From Gallionella sp. (GTDB lineage: Bacteria; Pseudomonadota; Gammaproteobacteria; Burkholderiales; Gallionellaceae), in NCBI GenBank assembly GCA_017880865.1, contig JADGRL010000005.1, forward strand, positions 5,740 through 69,739: a stretch of DNA of 64,000 bases, read 5' to 3'. Position numbers and translations under genes: made by a program. The notes under the pieces were generated by a model that did no database searches, had not been told where the DNA came from, and worked only from the letters and a program-made list of their open reading frames with translations. The stretch's first letter is position 1. Every line of letters starts with the position of its first letter. This document shows positions 45,284 to 60,829 of this stretch, piece after piece.

Positions 45284-45546
45284 AGCCCATTTGCAATAAA
45301 TTTGCAATAAATCGGGGGGGCACTAAGCCGTTTCAGCGCCCCGTTGATACGCCCATTTCCCGTTCTTTCAGTTTTCATACCCCGCTTAGATGATGCAGAC
45401 CTTAATTACAAGTAGTATCATTTTGCTTCGCGTTGGATAAATTTTAGATGTATGGGTGATGCATGGACGCGCTCAATAATTTATGCGGGGCGACTTACCT
45501 GAAGCACATGCGTTTTAATTTTATGTTTTTATAGGAGTTATTTGCC

Positions 45547-46944
45547 ATGAAAAATAATTTGAATTGTCTTATTACAGGTGGAAAGTTACTGGTTATCGGC
45601 TCATTAGTCGGCGCGTTGATTACCGGATGCGGCGGCGGAGGCGGCGGCTCTGTAGCCACTCCTGTTTCTACACCTACGGCAACAGCCGGAAGCTCGGCGT
45701 CGAGTTCCGGTTCCACCGGGGTATATACCAAAAATGGGGCCTCTTATGCGTTGACTCCCGCTCCTGCAGCAGCTGGAACGGCCAAGTTATTGACTCTGCC
45801 TAATACTGGCGGCGCGGTGGGGGTACTTACCGTTACCAGTGTTTCTGCAACACCGATTGCGACTTCTTTGACCGCCATCAATGGGACGTCAGTAGACCCG
45901 GCACACAATGTCGGGATGGCCTTTAGTTATTTGAATAGCAAAATTTCGATTTTCGGGTTGCCGTCGCACCCGACCAGCCCCGATAAAGAAATTTCGACTT
46001 ACGACACACTGACTACTAACACCCTTTCGTTTAGTGGCGGCTCTGCAATGATACCCGGGGCTGTCATGAATACGGCGAATCAGACCCTGGTCATCGCAAC
46101 AGGGAATGGTTTTGACGTGGTCGACTATACAAACCCGGCTGCGCTGAAAAGACTGCGCGAGATTCCTTCTTTACAGTCGGATCCAGTAGCGGGTGTGGAG
46201 GTGATGGAAAACTTCGCGTTTGACGCCAAGCTACCTGTAGCTGGTGCAAACTATGCGATGATTATTACCGGGGGTAGATCTAGCTACAATGTTGCCAACC
46301 CGGTTATGACACTGGTCGACGCCAATACCGGTACGGTTTACAAGCCAGACACCGCGACCGCAGCACTATTTACCATAAACCAATATATCGATGCTGCTGC
46401 TGTGGATACGACCTACCATGTGGCGGTGCTGGCAGATGAAGGAACCGGTACCACCTTCGTGGATTTAACCAAGCTGACCCTCAATGCAACAGCGAAGACT
46501 TATACCTTGCCTGCTGCGGCAGTCAGCCTTATTCCAACCTATTACAAGTATGACAACCTCGCGATCGAAAGCACCAAACATCTGGTGATGATGGGGGCAG
46601 GTATGGGAGGGACTTCGATGGTTGTAGGTCTGTTAAAAGATCCTGCGGTCGGATTGGGTTTCAGTAAAGAGGTCATAGTGACCATGCCGGCCGGTACCGA
46701 TGATACGGGTGCCGCAGTCACTTGGTCTGGCAGCGGCGACCCTCATGGGGCGGGGGCTTATATTACCGATCCTTTACACCCCACCTACACCACACCAACC
46801 GCTCTTGGCTTATGGGTGAATTATGCCGGTGACCATATCGCGATTATCAACCTGCAACATGTACTGGATGGGACGCTGGCTGGGGGAACGTACAATCCAA
46901 CGACCACGACCCCGAAGGATATTGCCTATTTCAAGATTCCTTAA
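45547..46944 (+). CDS. Lipoprotein A (465 aa), Thr/Ala-rich, beta-propeller-like
   Basis: LITG-C-GGGGGG lipobox/tether; repeated beta-blade-like segments; RBS GGAG. Confidence 0.8.
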   Translation: MKNNLNCLITGGKLLVIGSLVGALITGCGGGGGGSVATPVSTPTATAGSSASSSGSTGVYTKNGASYALTPAPAAAGTAKLLTLPNTGGAVGVLTVTSVSATPIATSLTAINGTSVDPAHNVGMAFSYLNSKISIFGLPSHPTSPDKEISTYDTLTTNTLSFSGGSAMIPGAVMNTANQTLVIATGNGFDVVDYTNPAALKRLREIPSLQSDPVAGVEVMENFAFDAKLPVAGANYAMIITGGRSSYNVANPVMTLVDANTGTVYKPDTATAALFTINQYIDAAAVDTTYHVAVLADEGTGTTFVDLTKLTLNATAKTYTLPAAAVSLIPTYYKYDNLAIESTKHLVMMGAGMGGTSMVVGLLKDPAVGLGFSKEVIVTMPAGTDDTGAAVTWSGSGDPHGAGAYITDPLHPTYTTPTALGLWVNYAGDHIAIINLQHVLDGTLAGGTYNPTTTTPKDIAYFKIP

Positions 46945-47041
46945 CCGGCAATATCTGCAACGGCAATTGACATGAAATTGAGTGCATGGGCGACACTGGC
47001 CGCCCATTCACTCACATGAGTTCAAACTTTGCATGTCGCAT

Positions 47042-47071
47042 CAGGGGCTGATTTTCCGCCCCTGTTTTTTT
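47042..47071 (+). terminator. Intrinsic terminator after lipoprotein A
   Basis: CAGGGGC/GCCCCTG stem + T7. Confidence 0.75.
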
Positions 47072-47199
47072 GCCAGACTAAAAATTCGTCATTCCCGCGC
47101 TGCTACTTGGTAATTCGCGTTGGCGCCCCCTCAATAAAGCATTTGTGCTGCAGGCGCTCAGCCACCCTCGCTTCAATGCGCAGCAATCTCGTTCGGTTT

Positions 47200-48390
47200 T
47201 CAAGACCGATGGCTGGCAAACCCCATCATCAGCTTAACGAAGCGGGCGCGGGTATTCACCCCGAGCTTGGTATAAATACGCTTGATCTGAGTGTTCACCG
47301 TGTGCGGACTGGTACCCAGCTTGTCGGCCACTTCCTGCGCGGAACTGCATTCCAGCAAGGCCATCGCCACTCGCGCCTCGGCGGTCGTCAGCCCGTAGGC
47401 GCTTTGCAGCGATGCCTGATCAATCTGCACTTGCTGCGCACCATCGGCAATGAAAACGATAGCGGCGTATGCACCACTCTGTGCACCGAATTCTGTGTGA
47501 TCTCCCAGCGCCGAAAACTGCAAGGTATAACTGGCTACGCCGGAAGTTTGGGGCACCGTGACACATTGGGAGAAATGCGGGGTGGCATAAGGATCGCGGT
47601 TCACCGTCGCACTGATTGCATCATTGATCGAACTACAGGCCGCTGCATCCTCCGCAACCAGATCGCCGAGACCGGCAGTATGGGTCAGCTTGCGCAGCCG
47701 CAGACCCTCGCCATCTTTCAGCATGCGTCGTGCGGAACGATTGGCGAATGCCACCGCGCCCGAACCATCCAGCAGCAACACCCCGGAGGGCAACCGGTCG
47801 AGCGCGGCCAGGCTGGTTGCCACGGTCAGCTCTGCCGAGCGCAGGCGCTGCATCACGCCCAGCGAACGCGACAGATGCGGCAGCACCAGACGCAGCCGGG
47901 CGCGATTTTCTTCATCGAAATCCGGGTGGTGCGAGCCACGGAAAAAAGAACAAATCGCAGGCACGGAAGTGGTTGAGTCCAGCCCGAACACCATGCCTGT
48001 CAACAGTTGCACCATGTTCTGGTTGCGAGATAAGCATTCTTTATAGAAATTGGACGCAAGCAACTGCGCACGAGGAACCAGCTCATCTCCGAGTACCACA
48101 CTCCCTGTGGTGTACAGGTTTTTTTCAGCAAAAGCGATCTTCCAAACGTCTTCGTCATAGTACTTATGCACATATTGATCGACATGCTCTTGCGTAATGC
48201 CATGCAGGAAGAAGTACCCGGAATTTTGGGCGGTGTGTAACGGCGAGTAGAGGATACATGCTGGCGCCTGAATGTATTCCGCCACCGCAGGCAATATGTC
48301 GCGGGTCCAGCGAGATGGGTCGGTCGCCCCTTCGTAAATCAGCCCGATCAGATCGGACAGACGCGTCAATTCCTCGTTAGTACGATCCAT
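47200..48390 (-). CDS. LuxR-type HTH regulator with GAF-like and PAS-like sensor domains
   Basis: 'LDRLPSGVLLLDGSGAVAFANRSA' (PAS); 'YGLTTAEARVAMALL..SAQEVADKLGTSPHTVNTQIKRIYTKLGV' (LuxR HTH). Confidence 0.88.
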   Translation of the reverse strand: MDRTNEELTRLSDLIGLIYEGATDPSRWTRDILPAVAEYIQAPACILYSPLHTAQNSGYFFLHGITQEHVDQYVHKYYDEDVWKIAFAEKNLYTTGSVVLGDELVPRAQLLASNFYKECLSRNQNMVQLLTGMVFGLDSTTSVPAICSFFRGSHHPDFDEENRARLRLVLPHLSRSLGVMQRLRSAELTVATSLAALDRLPSGVLLLDGSGAVAFANRSARRMLKDGEGLRLRKLTHTAGLGDLVAEDAAACSSINDAISATVNRDPYATPHFSQCVTVPQTSGVASYTLQFSALGDHTEFGAQSGAYAAIVFIADGAQQVQIDQASLQSAYGLTTAEARVAMALLECSSAQEVADKLGTSPHTVNTQIKRIYTKLGVNTRARFVKLMMGFASHRS

Positions 48391-48417
48391 GTTCCCCCTC
48401 CCCCTTTATTTTGCTTT

Positions 48418-48468
48418 ATACCCAGTTCTAGTGATGCGCACTTCAGCATCGCACTGTACCATGCCGCC
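48418..48468. promoter_or_regulatory. Conserved block between divergent regulator and lipoprotein B
   Basis: 47/51 identical to 54640-54690. Confidence 0.65.
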
Positions 48469-48677
48469 GACCATATACGTCCAACAGGGAAATAACCGCC
48501 ATGAAACCCGCCTTCAGGAACTTGCTGTTCATCCGAGAGAGCAGGGAAAACAATCGCGAAGCGGTTTAGTCCTTTGTCGCATAGCAGCACAATTTTCAAA
48601 CCTACCCGCTGCAAATGTAGCCAGTTCTGTGCACCTGAATTATTTTTGCCGTTCAATCACTCTTGGAGAATCGTCTC

Positions 48678-50375
48678 ATGCAACTCAAACCCACCTTACG
48701 TAAAGCCACCGAACTCGGGCTCTGCCTCGTCGCCATTACCACCTTGATTCTTGCCGGATGCGGCGGAGGGGGTGGTGGAACTGCTGCTGGCACATCAGCT
48801 ACCGTAAAAGCTACCGGTGTTGTATACCCCATTGTGGTAGGACTCTCTTACCAGACAAACTCGGTCAGTGGTGTTATAGCTGCAGATGGCAAATACACAT
48901 ATCAGGGCAAGGAAAATGTTACTTTCAGCGCTGGCGGTATAGCACTTGCGACAGTCCCTGCTGCGGCACAAGTCACGCCTATCCCACTCGATAATAATGT
49001 TTCGTCGACAAACCTGTTGCGCTTATTCAAGGCGCTGGATACCGATGTAAATTTAAGCAATGGCATTACGCTTAAACCATTGGCAACATCGAGTCTGACA
49101 GGTATCGATTTGAGCAGTGAATCATCGGTATCGGCTGTGCTGTCGAGTTTATTGCCCACTGCCATCTTACCTGCTGTGAGCGATGTACAGGTAACTACGA
49201 CTTTGGCTGCCGCAAAAACGACGGCGTTGCAGAACATGGGCACTTTTGGCTCGACATACAAGGCTATCATCGTCCCCAAAGGCTGTAACACGCTTCCCCA
49301 GTATCCGAAGAATGCAGTGGTTAATTTGACATCGCAGCCCAACTGGGTCACCGGGGCCATATCAGGAACGGCCACCCTCACGCTTAACGATAACAGCACG
49401 GTGACGTTACCTATCAACGCTGCCAGCGGTACTTACACGGCTTCAGGCGGCACGGTTGCTTATTCTTTCGTACCGAGCTACGGGGGGAAGACACGTGTGT
49501 TGTTTATTGATTTCATCGCTTGCGGGAGGATGGTTGTGCGCGACAATTCACAACCCAATATACCTCCCGTGCCTTCAATCGGTCTCACTTACTCAGTCAC
49601 CCTTCCGCAAGGAACGCCACCTGCATCTGTATATACTTTCTCGAATATTCCGTCAGGCGCAGACACCATTGTTGCGATGGGATCGGTTGACCTTGATGGC
49701 ATGGTGGTATCGCAGAGTTGGGTGAGCAGCAAGGGAACGACGGGTACCGGCAACACTTTTTCAGAAAGCTTTAACTATAATGAAAAAGGCAGTATCACGC
49801 TGACTGCAACGGACGACGAAGGGGCGACCGCATCCAAGACTTGGCAGTTTAATTCTGGCGGTACGGCGGCTTCTACACTGACACTGGCTGGGTCAGTTAA
49901 CTCGTCGCTGGCAATGAACAACGATACTTTCTGGAATCAAGGTCCTGTGATAAATACTGGGACTATTTTTAATGCCATGTTGATTGATGGTACTTACCCG
50001 GTAATTCAATCTGAGACCTTATATGCAAGAGCTTGGACAACAGGAGTCGCTAATACCGGTCTCGCGCCTGCGGCGGGGGTTACACAATTTAATATAGCGG
50101 TCTATCAAGACACAGTAGCAAACCGGACATATCTTGACCTTGCTGGCGGTAAGGATACATCCGCATATTACCTTTCCGGTGGCAGTACTGCAGGTTTCCG
50201 ATGTGAGTTTATCGCATCAAATTTAAGCCCGTCATGTGCAAGTGCAGGTATAAATATGAACCGTACCGCAGGGAGCATATCTTTCACGAACACACCCATG
50301 GTGATCATGGTAAATGGAGCAGCACCATCAGGTTCCTTTACCTTAAACGGTACGTTGTCATTCACACCTTTTTAA
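48678..50375 (+). CDS. Lipoprotein B (~565 aa) with PKD-like domain
   Basis: LAG-C-GGGGGG; 'GSVDLDGMVVSQSW...ITLTATDDEGATAS' PKD pattern. Confidence 0.8.
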   Translation: MQLKPTLRKATELGLCLVAITTLILAGCGGGGGGTAAGTSATVKATGVVYPIVVGLSYQTNSVSGVIAADGKYTYQGKENVTFSAGGIALATVPAAAQVTPIPLDNNVSSTNLLRLFKALDTDVNLSNGITLKPLATSSLTGIDLSSESSVSAVLSSLLPTAILPAVSDVQVTTTLAAAKTTALQNMGTFGSTYKAIIVPKGCNTLPQYPKNAVVNLTSQPNWVTGAISGTATLTLNDNSTVTLPINAASGTYTASGGTVAYSFVPSYGGKTRVLFIDFIACGRMVVRDNSQPNIPPVPSIGLTYSVTLPQGTPPASVYTFSNIPSGADTIVAMGSVDLDGMVVSQSWVSSKGTTGTGNTFSESFNYNEKGSITLTATDDEGATASKTWQFNSGGTAASTLTLAGSVNSSLAMNNDTFWNQGPVINTGTIFNAMLIDGTYPVIQSETLYARAWTTGVANTGLAPAAGVTQFNIAVYQDTVANRTYLDLAGGKDTSAYYLSGGSTAGFRCEFIASNLSPSCASAGINMNRTAGSISFTNTPMVIMVNGAAPSGSFTLNGTLSFTPF

Positions 50376-50673
50376 AATCATTAGGTGAAAGGCACCGGCT
50401 TTTCTGGACAAGCGGGTACGGCTGTTTAGTTACTCCCGTTTTTCCGGTGAGCTCTGTTGGTAGCGTTACGCTGAATTAAAGGGAACCTCCGCGCGGCCTG
50501 CCGATTTTTACTCAGCATGATTTGAAAATGAGGCAGGTGCGGTGTTCGCAGTCATAACAATCAGGTGACTTCAAAGGAAGTCTCCGTTTTCAATCAATCG
50601 AGACTTCCCCAATTCTCCGTCTCATACACAGGTGTGTATTGAGAGGTTTTTCACCAACCATAAAGGGCATGTG

Positions 50674-51078
50674 ATGAATAGAATTAAATTGGCGATGACA
50701 GGGCGCAAATGGGCAGGCGTATTCGGCCTTCTGCTTCGACGCGGCGCGATAGCGGCGTGCGGGGTGTTCGTGATCGGCGTGCTTCCGGCGGCGGCGGAGA
50801 CGTCGCGGAGCGGCGAAGTTTGGCATGACGAACTCACTATCAAGGAGGTGGTCAGCGGCAAGGTAACGCCGTATGACCAACACGAAGCGAGTATTCCGGG
50901 TGACGTTATCGCCGACAAGATGAATTCCCGGGCCGATGCGCAGGCTCTCTGGGGTTCGCAAGGCGGCACCGTTAGCGAATACACGGGTTGCGGCTCATGC
51001 GGTGTCGGGTCAAAAATAACGGTTGTCGTAACCTTCAGCTCGGTTATCGATACTCACGTTTTCAAGCGCGATAAGTAA
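50674..51078 (+). CDS. Hypothetical exported protein
   Basis: 134-aa ORF, hydrophobic leader ending AAA, 'GCGSCG' motif; 3' end duplicated at 52313-52417. Confidence 0.55.
   Translation: MNRIKLAMTGRKWAGVFGLLLRRGAIAACGVFVIGVLPAAAETSRSGEVWHDELTIKEVVSGKVTPYDQHEASIPGDVIADKMNSRADAQALWGSQGGTVSEYTGCGSCGVGSKITVVVTFSSVIDTHVFKRDK
50974..51078. repeat. 105-bp direct repeat, copy 1
   Basis: Nearly identical to 52313-52417. Confidence 0.92.
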
Positions 51079-51121
51079 GCGTCTCGGGGATATTCAGTTG
51101 ATGATCGTGATGCCGCTACGG

Positions 51122-51469
51122 TTATCCCAAAATCTGCGCCAGCATTTGGCGCAACGAGTGCTGGTCGCGGGGTGAAAGGTTGCCCATGCTGCGAATGACG
51201 AGTGTTTGTTCAAGCGTGGTCAGGACAGGCTTGGCGAAGGATGGCTTGAGCAAACCAGCCGCTTGCCAGTCAATAATTGTGCAAGTGGCAAAGTCCAGTA
51301 TCGTGTGGGGTTGGCTGGTGATTGCCATGATGAGCAAGTCCGGGCGATGCGCGTGGTAGGCGGTGTTGGAGATTACGACGGCGGGACGTTTTTTGTTTCC
51401 CTCTTGATTGGTGAAGGGGAAGGGTACGAGGAGAACTTCGCCAAAGGTATACGCGGATTCGGAAGCCAC
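51122..51469 (-). CDS. PemK/MazF-family toxin
   Basis: 'GEVLLVPFPFTNQEGNKKRPAVVIS...MAITS...AGLLKPS'. Confidence 0.88.
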   Translation of the reverse strand: MASESAYTFGEVLLVPFPFTNQEGNKKRPAVVISNTAYHAHRPDLLIMAITSQPHTILDFATCTIIDWQAAGLLKPSFAKPVLTTLEQTLVIRSMGNLSPRDQHSLRQMLAQILG

Positions 51470-51477
51470 GGCGAGGG

Positions 51478-51678
51478 TTACAGTTTGTCGTACACTGAGT
51501 CGGCGTCGTTATCCCAGACGGCGGCGAAGCTTGTAGCAGCGGCTTGCGCGGCAGACCGTGTTAACGCGCGATCTTTTTCGCGGCTGCGCAGAAAGTCCAC
51601 GAAGTCGGTGACTTCTGCCAAGCGAGTGGGAGGCAGTTGCAGGATTTTTTCAATCAACTGATGTTCGGCGGCATTCAT
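51478..51678 (-). CDS. Putative antitoxin (DUF2281-like)
   Basis: 'LIEKILQLPPTRLAEVTDFVDFLR...WDNDADSVYDKL'; upstream of PemK. Confidence 0.75.
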   Translation of the reverse strand: MNAAEHQLIEKILQLPPTRLAEVTDFVDFLRSREKDRALTRSAAQAAATSFAAVWDNDADSVYDKL

Positions 51679-51745
51679 GGCAAGCTCCAGTCGGAGGATA
51701 TATGCGCCAGATTATACGTAAAATAGTGTAGGGAAGTGAAGTTCG

Positions 51746-51985
51746 ATGTTTCATTTCAACAGGATCGGTACCATGCACTTTCGCTTCTTGTTTCTTGCAC
51801 TGCTCTGTCTGCCCTTTACAGCACACGCTGCCACGTTTGGCCGTGTGCGTACAATATATACAGACCTTCCTCGGCAGTTTCGTATGGTGCAAGCGTGGAT
51901 AGCCATCCACGAGGATGAATTGATGGCGGATTGGGAGCTGGCGGTAAATGGCGAACCCGGGTTTCCGATTGATCCGTTGCGTTGA
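51746..51985 (+). pseudogene. Chimeric ORF: signal-peptide-like N-terminus fused to DUF4160 C-terminus
   Basis: 'MHFRFLFLALLCLPFTAHA' joined to 'RMVQAWIAIHEDELMADWELAVNGEPGFPIDPLR'. Confidence 0.6.
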
Positions 51986-51995
51986 GGGGCTGGCG

Positions 51996-52235
51996 ATGAT
52001 TGAGGTTAATTCCGTTGAGGCGGTTTCCGATTTTGGGTTGCTTCTTACCTTCAATAGTGGTGAGCAGCGGCGCTTTGATATGCGTCCCTATCTGCACTAC
52101 CCGGTGTTCCGTCGCCTGGAGAATCCGGGTTATTTTTCGATGGCGCGTGTAGATTACGGCACCGTTACGTGGCCAGGCGATATCGATATAGCACCTGAAA
52201 CGCTTTACGAGCGATCCATCCCCATAAAATCCTAG
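51996..52235 (+). CDS. DUF2442-family protein
   Basis: 'LLLTFNSGEQRRFDM...VDYGTVTWPGDIDIAPETLYE'. Confidence 0.85.
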   Translation: MIEVNSVEAVSDFGLLLTFNSGEQRRFDMRPYLHYPVFRRLENPGYFSMARVDYGTVTWPGDIDIAPETLYERSIPIKS

Positions 52236-52312
52236 TTAGCGGAGCGCGCGGAGCCAAGTGCAGACTCGCAGCAGCGCGCCGCTTTCCCCTGTGCGCCGTC
52301 GATACATAAAAC

Positions 52313-52417
52313 AGCGAATACACAGGTTGCGGCCCATGCGGTGTCGGGTCAAAAATAACGGTTGTCGTAACCTTCAGCTCGGTTATCGATACTCACGTTT
52401 TCAAGCGCGACAAGTGA
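52313..52417. repeat. 105-bp direct repeat, copy 2
   Basis: Duplicate of the 3' end of ORF 50674-51078. Confidence 0.92.
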
Positions 52418-52510
52418 CCCGCCCTATTCAATCCGGTGTATTCATCATAACTAAGGGTGTGCTTGCGCACCTTTTCTAACCAGCGCAGTCGGGTTAATTT
52501 GCATACTATT

Positions 52511-52534
52511 TTTTAGACATCGTTTGATGCTAAA
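52511..52534. promoter_or_regulatory. Probable vapBC operator palindrome
   Basis: TTTTAG-A-CATC GTTT GATG-CTAAA(A) dyad ~30 bp upstream of vapB. Confidence 0.45.
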
Positions 52535-52563
52535 ATGTGTGCCTTGAATGCGGAGATATAACT

Positions 52564-52761
52564 ATGCGTACCACCCTTGCTCTTGATGATGACTTGCTTG
52601 AAAAAGCTCAAATGTTTATCGGACCGATGGAAAAAACAGCCTTGGTTCGTGAAGCCCTCAATGCGTTGATCCAGCGCGAGAGCGCCAAACGACTCGCATT
52701 GCTCGGGGGCTCTGAACCATTGCTTGAATATGTTCCTCGCCGCCAGTCCGAACCGGCATGA
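52564..52761 (+). CDS. vapB: VapB-type antitoxin
   Basis: 'MRTTLALDDDLLEKA...KTALVREALNALIQRESAKRLALLGGSEP'. Confidence 0.88.
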   Translation: MRTTLALDDDLLEKAQMFIGPMEKTALVREALNALIQRESAKRLALLGGSEPLLEYVPRRQSEPA

Positions 52762-53129
52762 TTCTGGTTGATACTTCGGTTTGGATAGACCATTTTCGTC
52801 ATGGTGATGTGGAATTGGCGAGACTCCTGAACACGGGTCAAGTGCTAACTCACCGGTTTGTTATCGGCGAGCTTTCCTTGGGCAATTTGCAGAACCGCAA
52901 TATCGTTCTCAGTACCTTGCAAAACCTGCCACAGGTCACCGTCGCCTCAGATGATGAAGTATTGCATTTCATCGGGAACCAAGCGCTTTTTGGCTCTGGA
53001 ATTGGTTACATCGATGCACACTTGTTGGCCGCTGTGCGCCTTACACCGGGCGCGTTGTTATGGACGCGAGACAAGCGCTTGTTGGCAGAGAGTGTCCGGC
53101 TTGGACTATGCGTAAACTTGGTTCATTGA
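52758..53129 (+). CDS. vapC: VapC PIN-domain toxin
   Basis: 'MILVDTSVWIDHF', 'GELSLG', 'GIGYIDAHLLA', 'LWTRDKRL'. Confidence 0.92.
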   Translation: MILVDTSVWIDHFRHGDVELARLLNTGQVLTHRFVIGELSLGNLQNRNIVLSTLQNLPQVTVASDDEVLHFIGNQALFGSGIGYIDAHLLAAVRLTPGALLWTRDKRLLAESVRLGLCVNLVH

Positions 53130-53219
53130 CAGGTTGATTTGCATCGTGATGAATTGCTGGCAGATTGTGAGCTTGCCAAGGAGGGCGTCGAACCATTCCG
53201 GATCGACCCACTAAAGTGA
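53130..53219 (+). pseudogene. DUF4160 C-terminal remnant
   Basis: Reads QVDLHRDELLADCELAKEGVEPFRIDPLK*, paralogous to the end of 51746-51985; no start. Confidence 0.7.
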
Positions 53220-53231
53220 AGGATTCTCACG

Positions 53232-53477
53232 ATGTTGCTTGATGTAACCCATGTGACCGTGCAACCCGATTTCACCCTGCTTCTTGAATTTGAAAATGGG
53301 GAGCGGCGATGCTTTAGTATGTCCACCTACATTGATCACAAACCTTGGAGTCGGCTCAAATCCGGCCATCTATTTCAGGGAGCTTTTGTAGAAAACGGCA
53401 CTGTGGCGTGGCCGGGGAATATAGATATTGACCCCGAAACGCTTTACGAGCGTTCGGTGCCTTTCAACAAAGCGTAG
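53232..53477 (+). CDS. DUF2442-family protein
   Basis: 'LLLEFENGERRCFSM...VENGTVAWPGNIDIDPETLYE'. Confidence 0.85.
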   Translation: MLLDVTHVTVQPDFTLLLEFENGERRCFSMSTYIDHKPWSRLKSGHLFQGAFVENGTVAWPGNIDIDPETLYERSVPFNKA

Positions 53478-53683
53478 GCACGCGGTATGAGAGAGTGTTC
53501 GTGGCGTCTATTGTTGCACAGGCTGATCGCTGGCTCGAAGCATCAGCCCCTGGCAGGGGCAACGGTCTGCGAGACGGCAGCGTAACATCACCAAAATAGC
53601 TCAGCGATCTGAAACGCCATTTTATGGTTATTTATTGGGTACGATTCACACCGTCCACTACTCAAGACTCTTAAATAAAAAAT

Positions 53684-54397
53684 ATGAAACTTAATATCCT
53701 CGCATTAATTATATTCATACCCGCTGCTTCATTCGCTGACGACATGCCTGTATCTGTTAACTTGGGCAGCTTGGGTATTGTTATAGATACGACAAGACAT
53801 ATCTCCGAAAAATTCGATTTACGTATTGAGGCTAGTCAATCGGTTTTTGGGTGGAGCGATCTAGCCAGTGCGGCTGCTCGTGGAAGCTGTATTTATTGTG
53901 GTCCGTGGGGTAATCGATATGTAATCAAGCAACAGACATTGGGGCCTATCGTGGATTGGTATCCAGTGGAATGGCCCCCACTCGAAGGGCACTTCCGAAC
54001 CAGCGTTGGATTGTTATTGAACAATAATAAGACTGAAGTCGAGGGGCTCAGCAGATATGAAGCGGCTAATGTTCTGATAGTTTTTGACACCTACCGCATC
54101 AATGGGAACGAATACTCTACTTCTCAAATCGGTAGGCCACACGGAAAATTTTCATACAAACGTTATGCCCCGTACCTTGGCATCGGCTGAGGTAATACAC
54201 ATAATATCCAACCCAATAAATGGACCTTCACTGCCGATGCTGGCATTCTCTTTCAAGGCAAGCCCACTCTCACTTACACAGCGACCGGCAATGTGCCAGG
54301 ATTACAAGCTGATCTCGAAGCGGAGCGAATCAGCATATTGAATAAAGAGCCATCTTGGTGGCCTGTTATTTCGGGTGGCCTTGTTTATATTTGGTAG
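53684..54397 (+). pseudogene. Outer-membrane beta-barrel-like protein interrupted by a single TGA
   Basis: Signal peptide; 'PYLGIG*GN' with TGA at 54188-54190; frame stays open 68 more codons to '..GGLVYIW*'. Confidence 0.75.
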
Positions 54398-54399
54398 CC

Positions 54400-54642
54400 G
54401 TGGGAGCCAGACTTGAAGGGTGATAGCTCGTCGTGCTGCAAGGCGAAAAATGGTTGGGCGCGCCCAGCTTTGGACACACCATCACGCCAAGCTACGAAAC
54501 CCTGCTGATTTGTTATATGCCCAACACCACAGGCAGGACGTCTTTCGCCCTCGCTTGCCCTTCGTAGACCAGTCCGATCAAGACGGATAGAAGTGTCAAC
54601 TCCTCGTTGGTTTGATCTATTTCGATTTTTTCTGATTTCATA
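54400..54642 (-). pseudogene. Decayed paralogue of the 47200-48390 regulator (N-terminus only)
   Basis: 'IDQTNEELTLLSVLIGLVYEG..KDVLPVV' vs 'MDRTNEELTRLSDLIGLIYEG..RDILPAV'; stop follows. Confidence 0.75.
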
Positions 54643-54690
54643 CCCTGTTCTAGTGATGCGCACTTCATCGTCGCACTGTAACATGCCGCC
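54640..54690. promoter_or_regulatory. Second copy of conserved divergent-promoter block
   Basis: 47/51 identical to 48418-48468. Confidence 0.65.
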
Positions 54691-54793
54691 AACAAAAAAA
54701 TCTTGTGGCAGCGCTGATGCATATCAAATGTTCGGCTGACCTAATCAAGAGCTGAACGATTTATATGTAATTAATTTTTTAAGGAGGTTAGAC

Positions 54794-55900
54794 ATGGATA
54801 TGCATTGGAATTGCCTGAAGAAGGCTGGACAGTTACTGGTTGTCGGCTCGATAATCGGCGCATTGCTTGCCGGTTGTGGCGGTGGTAGTACTGGTACTGG
54901 TTCTGGTACTGGTTCTACTACTGCTACGCACCAGCTTTCCGGAGGGCTTGGAAAACAAGGTGGCGGCGCGTCGGTCAATCTTACTGGTACGGCAACGAGC
55001 AGCACAGTCGCAGATGCGAGCGGAAATTACACTTTCCCTGGCTTAGGGAATGGGAGCTACACCATCACGCCAGCTTTACCAGGATATGCATTTAATCCAG
55101 CAAGCACTTCAGTAACTTTGTCTTCGTCGGACCCTGCGAGCGTGACAAACCCAACTCCAACAACAACAAGCCCTTCGAACGGAACAGTAAGTGGAAACTG
55201 GACTTGTGTTGTTCCAGACAATAACGGCGCAATGGCCTTTACCAGCGCTGGCACGTGGAGCACAACCGCCGGAGCTTATTGTGCTGGCACGAGTGTAAGT
55301 GGTACGTATTCTATCTTTGGAAATCAATTAACTACAAAAACAACTGCTAGCACAAACACTTTGACGTTGATGGGAGCCGGGATGGATGTCGATTGCTCCG
55401 GAAGTATGGACATAAACTCCCCCGCAACAATTGTTTTCGGTGGCACTAGTACTTTTACCGCGACCGATACTTCATATCAATCGATGACATGTACACAGAC
55501 TAGCACTGGCACTGGTACTGGTACTGGTACATGCTCAAACGGCGCAACTGATTATCCGACCTGTACGCCACCCACAACAGGCACTTGCTCAAATGGCGCG
55601 ACTAATTATCCGACCTGTACGCCACCCACAACCACTACCACCACCGGTCAGCTCATGGTTTGGACTAACAGAACATCGACTCCGACCGGTAGCATTTCGG
55701 TGACTATTGACGGAGCTTCCGCAGGCAGCTTAACTCAAAACTATACTACGAGTACGCCAAGTTGCGGTGCCGCAGGTGCCATCACTCAGACACTGACGGC
55801 AGGTTCCCACTCTGTTTCAGCTGCCTCCGGAACTCTGACTTGGCCATTAACAAGTTATACAGTCACTGCGGGCGGCTGCATGTCGGTCCTCCTCCAGTAG
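54794..55900 (+). CDS. Lipoprotein C (368 aa) with carboxypeptidase-regulatory-like domain and Cys repeats
   Basis: LAG-C-GGG; 'ADASGNYTFPGLGNGSYTITP'; two 18-aa GTCSNGATxYPTCTPPTT repeats. Confidence 0.82.
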   Translation: MDMHWNCLKKAGQLLVVGSIIGALLAGCGGGSTGTGSGTGSTTATHQLSGGLGKQGGGASVNLTGTATSSTVADASGNYTFPGLGNGSYTITPALPGYAFNPASTSVTLSSSDPASVTNPTPTTTSPSNGTVSGNWTCVVPDNNGAMAFTSAGTWSTTAGAYCAGTSVSGTYSIFGNQLTTKTTASTNTLTLMGAGMDVDCSGSMDINSPATIVFGGTSTFTATDTSYQSMTCTQTSTGTGTGTGTCSNGATDYPTCTPPTTGTCSNGATNYPTCTPPTTTTTTGQLMVWTNRTSTPTGSISVTIDGASAGSLTQNYTTSTPSCGAAGAITQTLTAGSHSVSAASGTLTWPLTSYTVTAGGCMSVLLQ

Positions 55901-56021
55901 GTTTCTGCGGTTTAAGACAAAACTGTTTTGGATATGGATGGATGCACTCCCACGGCAAGGGCGGGACAACGAGTCCCGCATGCTGTTGTCTCAGTAGCAG
56001 GGTTTTTAGCCAGTTACAGAT

Positions 56022-56060
56022 AAAAACCGGTCAGGGCGAGATACCTTGGCCGGTTTTTTT
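56022..56060. terminator. Bidirectional intrinsic terminator
   Basis: AAAAACCGGTCAGGG..CCTTGGCCGGTTTTTTT between convergent genes. Confidence 0.75.
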
Positions 56061-56267
56061 ATGCGTAGCAGTACAAACCAACATGCGCCGTATTTTTTAA
56101 TTCACTAAATCACATCGATAAAGCACAGTATTTTTAGCTGTAGCGTCCCGCTCACCGTCAATTCATCTTCCACCAGTTCTAGTGAAATGCATCGCGATAA
56201 GTCGTACCCATCGGCTAAGTCCTTCCCTCGTCGTGCTGCAAAGCGAAAAAGGGTGGCTAAAAGGGAA

Positions 56268-57236
56268 TCAACCGGTTGTGAACAGGGAGGCCAGCTCCAC
56301 CTTGTTGCCGATGTCGAGCTTGGTGTAAATACGACCCAAAAAGTTGCGCACGGTGACTGGGGCAATATCCAGTAGCAGCCCGATTTCTTTATGTGACTTG
56401 CCGATGCCATAAAGTCTGGCTACTTCGAGTTCACGCGGGGTCAGCCTGTGCAGTGGCGATACCTTGCGGATATTCAGCAGCAACATATTTCCAAGGGTAG
56501 TTGCCGAGACAGCATGGTCTGCGAGCAAGGCTTCTCTTCCCGGATGGAGCTCCATCATCAGTTCTGCTGGTAGCCTCCCACTTTTCCATTCCGGCCATGC
56601 CTTGCGCACGAGCTCGGCGAATTTTCTGCCGCAATGGTATAGCGTGCCATCCATGCGGGCGAGCGCACGGGTTCCCGCCGTCCCGGAATCAGGCAAGGCC
56701 GAAAGTCCCAGTCCCAACAGCCTGTTGATTTCCAGCGCCTCGATGAGATGAGGCATGATCTGTTCCAGAATGTGACCGTCGGCTTGGTCCCAATGATCGT
56801 GTTTATCGTTGCGGTAAAGCGATAGCCACTGCCCGTGAGGGTGTCTGCTGCTGATTGAGTTGATCACCATATTATTCAGATGACCATAGCGCCGTGAATA
56901 ATCCAGCATGAGGCTATTTTCGGGGGTATTGAACCAGCTCGGTGCATGGAAAAATAAGGCGCGATTGGGATTGGAAATAACGGCGTCGATGACCGTGTCC
57001 TGATGGTTGATGGATGCCCAGTCATCCAGCACTTCAGGAGATTCGTTATGCGAGTATATGGCGTGCGCGACGAGTCCGGTCTTGGTCATTTCGCCGCTCC
57101 CCCAGGCTGCCGTGCGGAAAGGGATTTGCGCCTTGACCAGCGCCAGCGCCAATTCCTGGAACTCGTCAACCGGTGTTTCTCTTGCCGCACAGTAAACTTC
57201 CAGGATCAACTTGCTCAAGGCATCCAACTGGCTCAC
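56268..57236 (-). CDS. LuxR-type HTH regulator with GAF-like N-terminal domain
   Basis: 'LTPRELEVARLYGIGKSHKEIGLLLDIAPVTVRNFLGRIYTKLDIGNKVEL'. Confidence 0.88.
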   Translation of the reverse strand: MSQLDALSKLILEVYCAARETPVDEFQELALALVKAQIPFRTAAWGSGEMTKTGLVAHAIYSHNESPEVLDDWASINHQDTVIDAVISNPNRALFFHAPSWFNTPENSLMLDYSRRYGHLNNMVINSISSRHPHGQWLSLYRNDKHDHWDQADGHILEQIMPHLIEALEINRLLGLGLSALPDSGTAGTRALARMDGTLYHCGRKFAELVRKAWPEWKSGRLPAELMMELHPGREALLADHAVSATTLGNMLLLNIRKVSPLHRLTPRELEVARLYGIGKSHKEIGLLLDIAPVTVRNFLGRIYTKLDIGNKVELASLFTTG

Positions 57237-57275
57237 CTGTTATCTCGAATTATTTATTAGTGCTGTCTGCTGGAA

Positions 57276-58058
57276 TTATCTATCTTCGCACCAGGTCTCA
57301 GGTGGCAACTCAAAATGTACGGCATGCCCGGCGTCCACCATTTTAAATTCCGCCTGCGGAAATATCGATTTCCATTTTTTCTGGTCTACAACACTGTCCT
57401 GCAATGGGTCGTGTATACCCATCAGGATTTTCACCTCTCCGCCAAACTTCATGACCTGCGCCGGGAGCGGGGTATGGAGTAATTCCTGCATCACCAGGAA
57501 GAAGGTTGTCGCATCCATCGGGGGCGTCTGATTTGCGATAGCGAAATAACGTTCTCGCGCCTGCGTCGAATGGGGGGCGAAATAAATGCCGGGCATTGCG
57601 CCATTGGGGTAACAAGCCTGCACCAAGGCAAAGAAGCGGCTTTCATCGCAGTTTTGTTCTGCCGCCGCCAGCGCGTCGCGCAAGCCGGGATGCTCAAAAC
57701 CCGCTGCGAGCAGACGCTGTGCCAGAAGAAAGAACTGGCGGATGGGGTCGGGGGAGCATCCCAGCAAGGTGATGCGCCGGATCAGCGCCGGATATTCGCG
57801 GGCCAGACTCGCGGCGATCTGTCCGCCGAAGGAATTTGCGATGAGATCGACCGGTCCGCCATTCGATGCGGCCAACATCTCAAGCTGGCAACCAACAAAG
57901 TCAACCAACGTGCGGAAGGGCGCTGCGCCCCCAGCTAAAGCGGGCGCTACAGCGGGCTGATCCCACCACAGCACAGGCAGCGTATCGCCGAACCAGATGC
58001 GCTCAACCTTGGAATGTAATCCGGGGCCGCCGTGTATAAAGAGCTTGTTTATTTTCAT
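57276..58058 (-). CDS. Alpha/beta hydrolase
   Basis: 'FIHGGPG', nucleophile elbow 'IANSFGG', 'GIHDP', 'DAGHAVHFE'. Confidence 0.85.
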   Translation of the reverse strand: MKINKLFIHGGPGLHSKVERIWFGDTLPVLWWDQPAVAPALAGGAAPFRTLVDFVGCQLEMLAASNGGPVDLIANSFGGQIAASLAREYPALIRRITLLGCSPDPIRQFFLLAQRLLAAGFEHPGLRDALAAAEQNCDESRFFALVQACYPNGAMPGIYFAPHSTQARERYFAIANQTPPMDATTFFLVMQELLHTPLPAQVMKFGGEVKILMGIHDPLQDSVVDQKKWKSIFPQAEFKMVDAGHAVHFELPPETWCEDR

Positions 58059-58197
58059 GGGTGCGGGCTCGAACAATTTTTCAGTGGTAAATAATGAAAC
58101 TTGTGATGCATTTGCATCATATACAAGCTTAGTCGTTCAGTATACCTTGCCCAAGGTTCTTGGAACTTGTTCAAACAATCAATGAGGGGGAATTAAC

Positions 58198-60345
58198 ATG
58201 AAGCAAATAAAACAACTTTTAGCGATGCTATTTTGCGTCGCTGTTGCCGCGTGCGGCAGTGGTGGAAGCAGCACTCCGGCTGCCAGCGGTAACAATACAG
58301 GTGGCACGCCCACTCCTGCTGCTTCGAGCACCTTGGTCTCCGGTGTCGCCGCATCAGGCGCACCGATTGTGGGTCAAGTGGTCGCTATTGATGCAAATGG
58401 TAAAACGTTTGCTGCGACGACAAGCGCGGCTGGCGCTTATACGGTCAACGTGGCGGGCGGGACAGCACCATTTATTTTGACGGTGGTAGGAATGTCGGGC
58501 GGGAAAGCCGTTACGTTGAATTCCGTGGCAACTGCAGTCGGTCAGACGGTCAATATCACACCGCTTACCGACTTGATCGTTTCTACTGCGGCTGGTCAGC
58601 CCGGCGGCGCGGCATTGGCCACTCTTTGTGCTTCTACTGCCGCAGCAGATCAGGTGAAATGTAAGGCAGCGTTGACAGCGGCGACAACCGGGACGCATTT
58701 GAGCGCTGCGGTCACTGCGGTGACCAAGATGATTGCCCCCTTGAATACAGCCGGGACCGATCCGCTGAATGGCGCATTTACGGCCAATGGCACCGGTATG
58801 GACGGCGTGCTGGATGCCATTCTGGTAACACCTGCTACGGGTCAGGGCGCAATGGCAACGGTGACGCTGATTGCGGTTCCCACGCAACAATTAGGAACGG
58901 TGACCATGCCTGCTGCAGCGGGCGGTGTGGCAACTCCAGTCATTGTTGTGCCGCCGGCTTCAGCCATCACGGCAGCTACTACCGGCGCTACCGCGCTGTC
59001 GGAGATCAACGCATGTCTGGCATCCTTGAGTGCGCTGTATCCGGCAAACATGACTACACCGCCCACCGTGGCGCAAGTCACGCCCTTCATCGATCCGACG
59101 TTTATGTTGGGCGGAGCGGGCAGCACCCAAAATCAAGCGTGGTTCATCAATAATAAAATGACTGTACTGGCGTCTGCGGGTGGTGTAGCACAGCCTGGAT
59201 TGACTATAACTTCCAGCGGGCTGGCAGCTTTCGATTTTACCCCGCAGACGACCACCGCGTTAGCTCAAGGGATGACGGCCGTATCGCCGGTGAGCTCTAC
59301 TGCGGCATGGGTACGTTTGCAAGTGCTGGGGAACAACGCCATGAACTGGAAAATGGTCAAGGGTGCGGCCTATGCTGGTTGTGCGGGGGGCTGGCGTCTC
59401 GCCGGCGACTCTCATGTCGGCAACCACATGGACGCGCGCGTGTCGAAATGGGCTAATAGCCCCCTCGCAATCAGCTATACGCGTCAGTTGCCGCTCCATG
59501 TGGAGACCGCGAAAGCTATCGCAGAAGGTATCGGTTCGATCGTGGTCAGCGGCCCCGGCCTGGCTGTGTATAGCGGCAACACGGCGACACCGGTGGGTGC
59601 TGCAACGCCCATCACCTTGGTAGTACCTCCTGTACCCGCCGCGCCTGTGGGAACCACTCCGGTTCAACTCACAGCGTTGGGAATACAAGGCCAGATGTCC
59701 ACCAATGGCACCAATACCTCATATCCAGCAGGTTCGTTCTATTTCAACGCTGAAGCGATTCAGAGTTGTCAGGATCTGGGGTTAATCGTGACACCTCAGG
59801 CATTGCCCGTGGCTGGAACGCCTTGCTATGACGAAACCGCAGTTGCACCGGGCGCGGTATTCACCTGGACAGCGATGAACAGTGCCGCCACGGTGTTGTA
59901 TGCGTATTCCTACCAGGTCTATGCCGTTCCTCTGTCATTAGCTTTTGCTCAGGCAAACGACAAGGACCTGTTTGTGCAGAACATCACGCCTACCCCGGCC
60001 ACGGTGGCTGCGCTGAATACCGCGGCGGCAGCTATCGCGGTCGGTGCGAACATCGATAGCATCATCAAGTTCAATTACACAATGTCAGCAGTGTATGGTG
60101 GCACGGTTAGTAACTGCAATATTGGCTTGGTCGATTCGACCGCGACAACGGTATTGATGGCCGAGCAAAATGCCATGGGACAGCAAACCAGTTGTACCTT
60201 TGTCACCGCAGGGCTGAACTCTGGCAGTCTCGTCAAACCGGCCACTGCGTTCGTGGGCACAGCGACCAACGGGTGGACCAGCAACATGAGCGTGAGCGCC
60301 AATGTGCTGGGCAATCAAATAGCTTCGGGAATTCCTTATCTCTGA
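58198..60345 (+). CDS. Lipoprotein D (715 aa), Ala/Thr-rich
   Basis: VAA-C-GSGGSS; 'VSGVAASGAPI...TSAAGAYTV...VNITPLTDLIV' carboxypeptidase-regulatory-like N-domain. Confidence 0.82.
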   Translation: MKQIKQLLAMLFCVAVAACGSGGSSTPAASGNNTGGTPTPAASSTLVSGVAASGAPIVGQVVAIDANGKTFAATTSAAGAYTVNVAGGTAPFILTVVGMSGGKAVTLNSVATAVGQTVNITPLTDLIVSTAAGQPGGAALATLCASTAAADQVKCKAALTAATTGTHLSAAVTAVTKMIAPLNTAGTDPLNGAFTANGTGMDGVLDAILVTPATGQGAMATVTLIAVPTQQLGTVTMPAAAGGVATPVIVVPPASAITAATTGATALSEINACLASLSALYPANMTTPPTVAQVTPFIDPTFMLGGAGSTQNQAWFINNKMTVLASAGGVAQPGLTITSSGLAAFDFTPQTTTALAQGMTAVSPVSSTAAWVRLQVLGNNAMNWKMVKGAAYAGCAGGWRLAGDSHVGNHMDARVSKWANSPLAISYTRQLPLHVETAKAIAEGIGSIVVSGPGLAVYSGNTATPVGAATPITLVVPPVPAAPVGTTPVQLTALGIQGQMSTNGTNTSYPAGSFYFNAEAIQSCQDLGLIVTPQALPVAGTPCYDETAVAPGAVFTWTAMNSAATVLYAYSYQVYAVPLSLAFAQANDKDLFVQNITPTPATVAALNTAAAAIAVGANIDSIIKFNYTMSAVYGGTVSNCNIGLVDSTATTVLMAEQNAMGQQTSCTFVTAGLNSGSLVKPATAFVGTATNGWTSNMSVSANVLGNQIASGIPYL

Positions 60346-60368
60346 TAGGTGGCACTGCAGCAACATAA

Positions 60369-60408
60369 GCCAATAAAAAACCCCGCTTCGGCGGGGTTTT
60401 TTATTGGC
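60369..60408. terminator. Bidirectional intrinsic terminator
   Basis: GCCAATAAAAAACCCCGC-TTCG-GCGGGGTTTTTTATTGGC. Confidence 0.9.
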
Positions 60409-60647
60409 GGCAATTCACACAGTGACAACCCTCAAGGCTGCCATCGCTACTACGTCGTCTTGGCTCCAAATTCGCCTATGCGTGCCGCCGTCACAGCATT
60501 GGCGCCGGTGCCTGTGATCGTGCCTCCGCCGGGTGTTAATATCTGGAAGGTCAACGTTAAAGACGCCAATGGCAAAACCACGCAATCCGCCAACGCTACC
60601 TTCTCGCCTTGGCGCGCTACGCACTCCAGTAATTGGGGTTTAAAAAT

Positions 60648-60673
60648 AAAAGGGGCCTCGGGCCCCTTTTTTT
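60648..60673. terminator. Bidirectional intrinsic terminator
   Basis: AAAAGGGGCC-TCG-GGCCCCTTTTTTT. Confidence 0.8.
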
Positions 60674-60829
60674 GCGCGCTGCTCGATGCACCTGCCGACG
60701 GTAAAACCTGAACCCATCGAGGCATATGCTATGCAGCATTGCGGCATCAACCACGCGGTTATGTCATTGAGGGCGATTGTGGGCACACCCTCTCTTCGAA
60801 TTTCGGGGTGTGGACTACACACTAAAAAA

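Follow-up and report, generated by a model that had tools for sequence, protein, structure and literature searches.

LuxR-type regulator genes and Gly/Ser-tethered lipoprotein genes in a genome-specific island of a Gallionella genome

The island and its genes

The window analysed here, a stretch of 64,000 nt from a Gallionella sp. genome (GCA_017880865.1, contig JADGRL010000005.1, positions 5,740 to 69,739), contains a 15.5-kb island (45284..60829) in which genes for LuxR-family regulators stand next to genes for lipoproteins with a Gly/Ser tether. The convergent 3' ends of nuc (+ strand) and lpxH (- strand) flank it. The island is an insertion specific to this genome, because the same site is empty in relatives: among 40 same-genus genomes, pgpA and lpxH are spaced by 50–1760 bp whenever they lie on one contig, compared with 16.3 kb here, and in a complete relative nuc and lpxH directly abut, homology to the window ending at 45261 and restarting at 60843. 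Its GC content is 52.4%, that of the genome 54.6%. We found no integrase-like open reading frame (ORF) among the listed ORFs of the island and no repeat pair bracketing it; it sits between the 3' ends of two protein genes, not at a tRNA target. The genome is a metagenome-assembled genome (MAG) of 2.85 Mb and 95.5% completeness, and nearly the whole sequence is present in one permafrost metagenome run.

The original prediction, made from the sequence alone, had described four lipoproteins, two regulators, a regulator remnant and a block shared by two intergenic regions. All of these are in place, LipB being 570 aa long from a TTG codon at which its homologues also begin. Two things had been overlooked, namely an R1-type vestige upstream of LipA and a further vestige at ~56100-56215. 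The features that concern us most are the following:

45330..45405, - strand: vestige 1 of an R1-type 5' end, with a box at 45377-45395 and ~16 degenerate codons, truncated at the island's left end
45547-46944, + strand: LipA, 465 aa, lipobox and tether ITGC-GGGGGGS, Cys 28
47200-48390, - strand: R1, LuxR-family one-component regulator of 396 aa with a sensor domain, a PAS-like middle domain and a GerE helix-turn-helix (HTH) domain
48415..48471, - strand: R1 5' block, with the box CATCACTAGAACTGGGTAT at 48418-48436, preceded by the extended -10-like TGGTACAGT
48663-50375, + strand: LipB, 570 aa from TTG, LAGC-GGGGGGT, Cys 33, PKD-like domain at residues 339-394
54520..54693, - strand: R2 remnant and its 5' block, with ATG at 54642, ~41 codons and a stop near 54520; block 54637-54693, box 54640-54658
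54794-55900, + strand: LipC, 368 aa, Thr/Gly-rich, LAGC-GGGSTG, Cys 28, CarboxypepD_reg-like region at residues 57-117 (sub-threshold in Pfam)
56100..56215, - strand: vestige 4 of an R1-type 5' end, CACTAGAACTGG matching at 12/12 and then ..EDELT.., adjoining the 3' end of R3
56268-57236, - strand: R3, LuxR-family regulator of 322 aa, ligand-binding-like at residues 1-177, a small beta domain at 190-258 and a GerE HTH domain at 261-321
57276-58058, - strand: Hyd, an alpha/beta hydrolase (Pfam Abhydrolase_1/6), 39 nt upstream of R3 on the same strand
58102..58125: lux-box-like palindrome TGTGATGCATTTGCATCATATACA between Hyd and LipD, a candidate R3 operator
58198-60345, + strand: LipD, 715 aa, VAAC-GSGGSS, Cys 19

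On balance, we favour reading the island as the insertion of four copies of a mobile cassette, each made up of a LuxR one-component sensor gene divergent from the gene of a Gly/Ser-tethered lipoprotein, with the regulator controlling its partner. Three cassettes are of the R1 type (one with the intact 396-aa regulator, one with the 41-codon remnant and one with a short vestige) and one is of the Hyd-R3 type. R1-type 5' ends number four in the island, one of them intact, and vestige 4 has no lipoprotein partner.

LipA to LipD all carry the lipobox [LVI][ASTVI][GAS]C, in front of which stand an n-region with Lys/Arg and a hydrophobic segment. Outside signal peptide and tether, their bodies are mutually unlike in an all-versus-all BLASTP comparison, which bears out the earlier statement that they are unrelated. 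Charged residues are few (4–12%) and there are no CxxCH haem motifs in any of the four. Pfam and PDB sequence searches with LipA gave no match. LipB is mosaic: its first 140 residues are found at the start of many proteins, which differ in length. In LipC, a (Thr-Gly)n tract is followed by a 54-nt tandem duplication (89%, in frame, 55523-55630) that encodes TGTCSNGAT(D/N)YPTCTPPT twice.

LipA and LipC have a common upstream region and common signal-peptide DNA (73% over 98 nt), after which they diverge completely, and the lipobox/tether DNA is similar in LipA, LipB and LipD. Because signal-peptide and tether DNA are alike ahead of unrelated bodies, these genes are consistent with a recombination of lipoprotein cargo at or after the tether. 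Duplication and decay have occurred within the island. The modularity, duplication, cargo swap and decay that had been proposed for it are thus upheld by the four R1-type 5' ends and by the tether DNA of LipA and LipC.

Regulators, hydrolase and cis-elements

An HTH domain of the LuxR/FixJ type was recognized in both regulators by Pfam (GerE, 29.5 bits in R1 and 44.8 bits in R3 at a cut-off of 23.5). A profile comparison of the R1 and R3 families shows full-length homology (hhalign 99.1%, E 4.7e-19, 311 columns), so that both types belong to one regulator family. An AlphaFold 2 (AF2) model of R3, built on 56 homologues (pLDDT 91.8), gave ~50 Foldseek matches to receptors of acyl-homoserine lactones (AHLs), among them QscR, CviR, LasR, TraR, SdiA, RhlR and CepR2 (E 8.6e-9 to 1e-5). 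Against the isolated ligand-binding domains of CepR2, CviR and LasR, the TM-score was 0.6–0.72 with an rmsd of 4–5.6 Å over ~172 columns. The N-terminal domain of R3 is therefore confidently predicted to have the ligand-binding fold of AHL receptors, in place of the generic GAF/PAS input domain that the original prediction had assumed. The sensor domain of R1 is likely to be AHL-receptor-like as well, since R1 is homologous to R3.

Sequence models do not see this domain. PF03472 (Autoind_bind) had no match in R1, in R3 or in the whole genome, while an E. coli control was positive. PDB sequence searches with R1, R3 and Hyd matched only HTH domains or generic esterases. Because the AHL-receptor fold is predicted yet escapes the sequence models, R1 and R3 would be LuxR-solo-like sensors of a clade that the standard autoinducer-binding definition misses. 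LuxI (PF00765) had no match in this 95.5% complete MAG, in a search that gave no match in any control genome either.

R1 has 263 homologues at E <= 1e-20, most of them from metagenomes, the best 120 being 61–82% identical. Species-representative genomes seldom encode it: 2 of 400 do so in the order, and 6 of 37 in the genus at >=40% identity. R3 homologues of 25–39% identity are common across the order (~38 of 401 genomes); a single-sequence search with R3 found no locus in the species-representative genomes, and a trimmed alignment found three loci only.

The HGGPG motif and the Ser-Asp-His triad of Hyd are invariant in seven of seven sequences. Hyd lies directly upstream of R3 on the same strand in all six metagenome contexts (R3 homologues of 55–76% identity), and by gene order the two are probably co-transcribed. 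One species-representative MAG (L042) has an R3 homologue without hydrolase. Hyd had no match to a named hydrolase family, lactonases included. We rejected its assignment as a proline iminopeptidase (S33), with no TIGR01249 or TIGR01250 match even at E <= 1. In two loci of the same genus, distant R1 homologues (~24%) are followed by a convergent alpha/beta hydrolase gene (L026:10549-11403 and L028:10750-11655). These hydrolases weakly resemble enol-lactonase and prolyl aminopeptidase, scoring 46–52 bits to prolyl aminopeptidase models, far below the cut-off; the hydrolase gene of L028 is itself followed by those for a response regulator and a TpsA-like protein of 2322 aa. A link between regulator and hydrolase is therefore present in the R1 branch too.

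Each cassette type has a conserved cis-element of its own at a roughly fixed distance from its own start codon. For the Hyd-R3 type, this is an inverted repeat ~40–80 nt upstream of Hyd, found in all seven loci and perfect in six. The arms read GATGCA..TGCATC in three loci and AGTGCA..TGCACT in four (one of these imperfect), and in L037 the repeat is lengthened to a perfect 14-bp palindrome. Elsewhere in the genome there is one copy inside a coding region, consistent with chance. The palindrome fits the binding site of a dimer, because both arms change symmetrically, and is a candidate operator of a dimeric LuxR-type protein that may co-evolve with its regulator.

For the R1 type, the element is the block that the original prediction had noted as near-identical in two intergenic regions. 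It is present, with 89% identity between 48415-48471 and 54637-54693 (92% over 51 nt), but it is the regulator gene's own 5' box, at a fixed distance from the ATG in 11 genes, and therefore gives no evidence for a shared lipoprotein promoter. The box RCATCACYNRAAYNRGGTATRAA, with a preceding extended -10-like motif TGnTAnnnT, was found upstream of 11 of 11 aligned R1-type genes and ends 21–43 nt before the start codon in the eight intact ones. A search for the 19-nt box in the 2.85-Mb genome returned three copies only, belonging to R1, the R2 remnant and the vestige upstream of LipA, and no further boxes that would point to a wider regulon. The box as a sigma-54 promoter or a NarL 7-2-7 site was dropped, because spacing and half-sites do not fit. 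Sigma-70 promoter and terminator scans stayed at or below shuffle expectation, and the conserved 5' blocks matched no RNA family in Rfam. Several short metagenome contigs (runs X1 and X4, over 48413-48468) share the R1 5' block and then continue differently; these communities therefore contain more R1-type cassettes.

The R2 remnant is a genuine decayed regulator, with 36 aa retained at 56% identity to the N-terminus of R1 (tblastn E 1.8e-4). Vestige 1 was defined by alignment with the upstream regions of R1 and R2, its box by a genome-wide regular-expression search. Vestige 4 is tied to the R2 remnant by a 28-nt direct repeat (93%) with copies at 54427-54454, in the R2 remnant region, and 56227-56254, just past the R3 stop. 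The order of this repeat and the R1-type box is opposite at the two places, and the repeat looks like a trace of a rearrangement between cassettes.

Recurrence with other cargo and competing explanations

Close homologues of R1 (70–79% identity) have a Gly-tethered lipoprotein with a different body next to them in five of six contexts, all with different flanks. Among the Hyd-R3 contexts outside the window, such a neighbour was found in two of seven. The genes next to the regulators are:

L080 (R1-type): 877-aa lipoprotein, LSGC-GGGGSA, with a TIG/DUF1573 body
L083 (R1-type): 511-aa lipoprotein, IAGC-GGGGSN, with a LipA/LipC-type signal peptide; then an outer-membrane protein (OMP) homologous to the interrupted OMP of the island
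L084 (R1-type): 572-aa lipoprotein, LVAC-GGGGGG, with an RCC1 propeller body
L077 (R1-type): two tandem regulators facing a LipD-like body; a lipoprotein of >641 aa combines a signal peptide of the LipB type with an N-domain of the PgcA type
L076 (R1-type): convergent 501-aa lipoprotein with a LipB-type signal peptide
L034/L041 (R3-type): divergent 458-aa LAAC-GGGGG lipoprotein with a LipD-like N-terminus
L036 (R3-type): divergent 1072-aa VAAC-GGGGGG lipoprotein with a LipD-like N-terminus and TIG; the next gene encodes a second lipoprotein of 523 aa with a LipA/LipC-type signal peptide
L037 (R3-type): divergent TpsA-like protein of >2250 aa
L039 and L040 (R3-type): small secreted proteins with patatin or GDSL lipases
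L035 and L042 (R3-type): divergent response regulator

The LipB-type signal peptide thus also stands on lipoproteins beside R1 homologues in L076 and L077. These gene orders show the cassettes at unrelated places in the chromosome, each time with another lipoprotein body.

The clearest case is a single chromosomal site, bamD-rluD-yfiH / MFS-zip-CDF-miaB, which L084 (R1-type) and L034 (Hyd-R3-type) share with collinear flanks of ~80% nucleotide identity. Between the flanks lie 3.1 kb in L084 (lipoprotein and R1-type gene) and 3.7 kb in L034 (lipoprotein, Hyd and R3), and L034 keeps ~125 nt of an R1-type 3' end behind R3. R1-type and Hyd-R3 cassettes therefore replace each other at one orthologous site. 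The original prediction had asked whether the pairing recurs with swapped cargo. For close homologues, the answer is positive (five of six R1-type contexts, two of seven Hyd-R3 contexts and one swap of a whole cassette), but the pairing does not extend to the wider families.

Gly/Ser-tethered lipoproteins number 20 in this genome, or ~0.7% of its genes. Seven of them lie within 6 kb of one of the 13 LuxR-HTH genes, where ~1 is expected, although these seven amount to three independent loci. All four intact LuxR-HTH genes without receiver domain stand beside such lipoproteins, and two of the four also adjoin genes for small OmpA-like barrels. A third regulator-lipoprotein locus (contig C17:4290-16761) contains a 1277-aa SARP/BTAD-like regulator, a small OMP and an 87-aa HTH-only LuxR protein, followed by lipoproteins of 1003 and 630 aa (LAAC-SGG..). 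On contig C45:11459-15779 (L030), the gene of an R3 paralogue with 30% identity, lacking a hydrolase partner, is transcribed divergently from two genes for OmpA-like 8-strand barrels; a 292-aa LAGC-GGSGNS lipoprotein and a secreted 175-aa protein are also encoded there.

Pfam has no model for the conserved ~700-aa family to which LipD belongs; LipD has 132 homologues at E <= 1e-10, and identities are 41–88% among the best 120. In its AF2 model (pLDDT 87.8), residues 41-219 match the non-haem domain of Geobacter PgcA (9i0d; Foldseek E 3.5e-13, TM 0.80, rmsd 2.5 Å, 33% identity), and a phmmer comparison of the two gave E 1.6e-14. In this part, LipD thus has a homologue of PgcA's N-terminal non-haem domain, which two further proteins of the genome also contain. 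PgcA, a cytochrome with a lipid anchor, is exported across the outer membrane and depends for this on its lipid attachment motif (PMC11520253). The Gly tether, the PgcA-type N-domain of LipD, the low-charge PKD, Ig and propeller bodies and a Slam gene beside a tethered lipoprotein elsewhere in the genome are the grounds on which surface exposure of LipA to LipD may be proposed.

In the mechanism that we propose, the regulator would bind a small molecule other than a self-made AHL, probably one of external origin. In the Hyd-R3 branch, the hydrolase would make, trim or destroy this ligand. A regulator dimer would bind the box in the short divergent intergenic region; it would control its own operon, and probably also the lipoprotein gene on the other side. 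After acylation, the lipoproteins would be sorted to the outer membrane and probably exposed at the cell surface, and new cargo would arise by recombination downstream of the conserved signal-peptide/tether DNA.

Control of the opposing lipoprotein genes is the step of this mechanism that several observations weigh against. Both cis-elements keep register with the start of the regulator or Hyd gene, not with that of the lipoprotein gene, and in L034 the palindrome is ~260 nt away from the lipoprotein ATG; what they directly support is therefore autoregulation or control of the hydrolase. Four Hyd-R3 loci face other genes (the TpsA-like giant, patatin/GDSL lipases, a response regulator), and one close R1 homologue (79%; L074/L075, 1-4787) is divergent from a complete gspG-N operon for pseudopilins and assembly proteins of a type II secretion system (T2SS). 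Lipoprotein neighbours are missing from same-genus R1 homologues at 40–62% identity, hydrolase and lipoprotein partners alike from R3 homologues at 25–39% across the order, and the regulator pairing from two LipD homologues in isolate-type genomes. The metagenome contexts come from related organisms and are independent of each other by their differing flanking genes alone, and among sequencing runs we found the sequence in metagenome DNA only, none being RNA-seq. The register of the cis-elements, the other divergent partners and the unpaired distant homologues would fit a co-location without control, in which the regulators act on their own operon or on Hyd only and the lipoproteins are fellow accessory genes in variable hot spots. 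The toxin-antitoxin (TA) modules that mark the island as a dumping ground point the same way, as does the finding that plant-associated LuxR solos regulate the neighbouring pip gene (PMC10134790). We nevertheless hold mere co-location to be rather unlikely. A tethered lipoprotein is the immediate neighbour in five of six close R1 contexts against ~0.7% of genes, lipoprotein and regulator were exchanged together at the yfiH/MFS site, and the intergenic distances are short (85–170 nt in L080, L083 and L084; 139 nt between Hyd and LipD of the island). We thus prefer to regard the regulators as probably controlling the lipoprotein genes that they face.

The ligand and the location of the lipoproteins leave room for two further explanations. 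R1 and R3 might be true AHL receptors that eavesdrop as solos on the AHLs of neighbours, with Hyd as a quorum-quenching AHL hydrolase. Alpha/beta-fold AHL lactonases exist, the ligand-binding fold of R3 matches AHL receptors and no LuxI was found in the genome, albeit by a search without positive control. We consider this improbable all the same, given that PF03472 is absent from R1, R3 and the genome, that both regulators have an extra middle domain absent from classical receptors, and that Hyd matches no lactonase model. It is a good deal easier to imagine, if still doubtful, that LipA to LipD are ordinary outer-membrane lipoproteins facing the periplasm and that the Gly tether is a mere flexible spacer. 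Gly/Ser-rich linkers are common in periplasmic lipoproteins. The island encodes no Slam, T2SS or other export machinery, which speaks against display, and Pfam finds no TbpB-type C-terminal barrel in LipA to LipD. Yet the N-domain of LipD is that of a protein exported across the outer membrane (PMC11520253), and bodies of the PKD, TIG, RCC1 and CarboxypepD_reg kinds with 4–12% charged residues are typical of extracellular proteins. In this genome, moreover, a Slam gene adjoins a Gly-tethered lipoprotein gene, and one R1 homologue faces a T2SS operon, the T2SS being a known export route for some surface lipoproteins.

Known systems and further features of the island

The closest described system is that of the pip-linked LuxR solos of plant-associated bacteria (XccR, OryR, PsoR, PipR, NesR; class D / subgroup 0, PMC10134790). 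The two have in common a sensor fold of the AHL-receptor type, a putative lack of a cognate LuxI (by a search without positive control), a coupled alpha/beta hydrolase with HGGPG, a palindromic box beside the hydrolase gene and a ligand that is presumably a non-AHL small molecule. In contrast to the pip-linked solos, R1 and R3 have no Autoind_bind match and possess an extra middle domain; Hyd has no prolyl aminopeptidase match and lies upstream in the same operon, and there is no peptide transporter. Their recurrent partner is a Gly-tethered lipoprotein, and they are found in uncultured Betaproteobacteria of soil and permafrost. The R1/R3 cassettes differ from the pip-linked group in all membership criteria that were tested. 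The review of LuxR solos (PMC10134790) mentions lipoprotein partners nowhere (0 occurrences), and a literature search for LuxR-lipoprotein cassettes found no relevant description, an absence that is no proof of there being none. RhlR-PqsE of Pseudomonas aeruginosa (8dq0 and 7r3j are among the fold matches of R3) also combines a LuxR-type receptor with a partner of hydrolase fold, but by analogy only: PqsE has a metallo-beta-lactamase fold and is not in an operon with rhlR.

For the lipoproteins, two systems invite comparison. In the Slam or type XI secretion system (T11SS) of Neisseria and relatives, lipoproteins such as TbpB, fHbp and NilC have a poly-Gly tether right after the lipidated Cys (PMC9100927), and our genome has a Slam homologue beside such a lipoprotein. 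The island differs in that it lacks Slam, the homologue on contig C36 being the only match in the genome, and in that no TbpB-type barrel was detected in LipA to LipD. On C36 (50974-57727), the Slam (DUF560) gene is directly downstream of the gene for a 545-aa LTAC-GGGGKA lipoprotein, and after Slam come a second TPR/OMP-like gene and FecR-like genes. The arrangement resembles a canonical T11SS cargo pair, here in a betaproteobacterium that is free-living. PgcA of Geobacter sulfurreducens (9i0d/9i0e; PMC11520253, PMC5732950) is like LipD in having a lipobox, a homologous non-haem N-domain and then cargo. The cargo of LipD is an unrelated body of ~480 aa, without the haem motifs and (PT)x linkers of PgcA. 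PgcA itself is under the control of a GEMM riboswitch and not of a LuxR protein. The occurrence of the domain in LipD suggests that it may be a general N-terminal head of exported lipoproteins and not the peculiarity of one cytochrome, which bears on the passage of lipoproteins through the outer membrane of bacteria that have no known dedicated route for it.

It is a tentative proposal that R1, R3 and the lipoproteins make up a system for sensing and display that has gone unrecognised and is exchanged horizontally among environmental Betaproteobacteria. If this is correct, a large Pfam-invisible clade of LuxR solos senses an external small molecule, which one branch processes with a dedicated hydrolase, and a cognate palindromic operator switches on a surface lipoprotein. 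The head of that lipoprotein would be a signal peptide, a Gly tether and sometimes a PgcA-type N-domain, and its body would be swapped by recombination at the tether, so that each cassette would be a self-contained, transferable unit of the kind 'if signal X, display protein Y'. The exchange at the yfiH/MFS site would then illustrate in one definite case the turnover of surface repertoires among uncultured bacteria of soil and permafrost. Few orphan sensors of Proteobacteria are more common than LuxR solos, of which nearly all lack a known ligand and known target genes. The R1/R3 clade offers a candidate operator with co-changing arms, a dedicated hydrolase expected to process the signal, and a recurrent class of putative targets.

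The remaining features of the island lie between LipB and LipC and at its right edge:

50632..53477: inserted filler between LipB and the OMP gene, consisting of ORF148 and TA/DUF genes (Pfam)
51122-51678, - strand: MazF/PemK and DUF2281 (Pfam)
51746-52235: DUF4160 remnant and DUF2442 (Pfam)
52537-53129: VapB-VapC (Pfam)
53232-53477: DUF2442 (Pfam)
53684..54397, + strand: gene for a small OMP, with one in-frame TGA where the homologue has Trp (TGG)
60369..60408: terminator-like hairpin with an 18-bp stem, 3' of LipD near the right edge of the island

The interrupted OMP is 35% identical over 240 aa to the OMP that follows the lipoprotein of L083 (E 1.5e-41, single-frame tblastn), and contigs from the source sample show no alternative base at its in-frame TGA. 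A contig joint (48616->56048) seen in two runs was rejected as a haplotype without LipB to LipC, since the 331-nt contig matches over 33 nt only and stems from another locus. Within the filler, a 103-nt direct repeat (97%, 50974-51076 / 52313-52415) copies the 3' end of ORF148. Its two copies flank a 1.3-kb segment with MazF/DUF2281, the DUF4160 remnant and DUF2442, which looks like a TA cassette inserted with target duplication.

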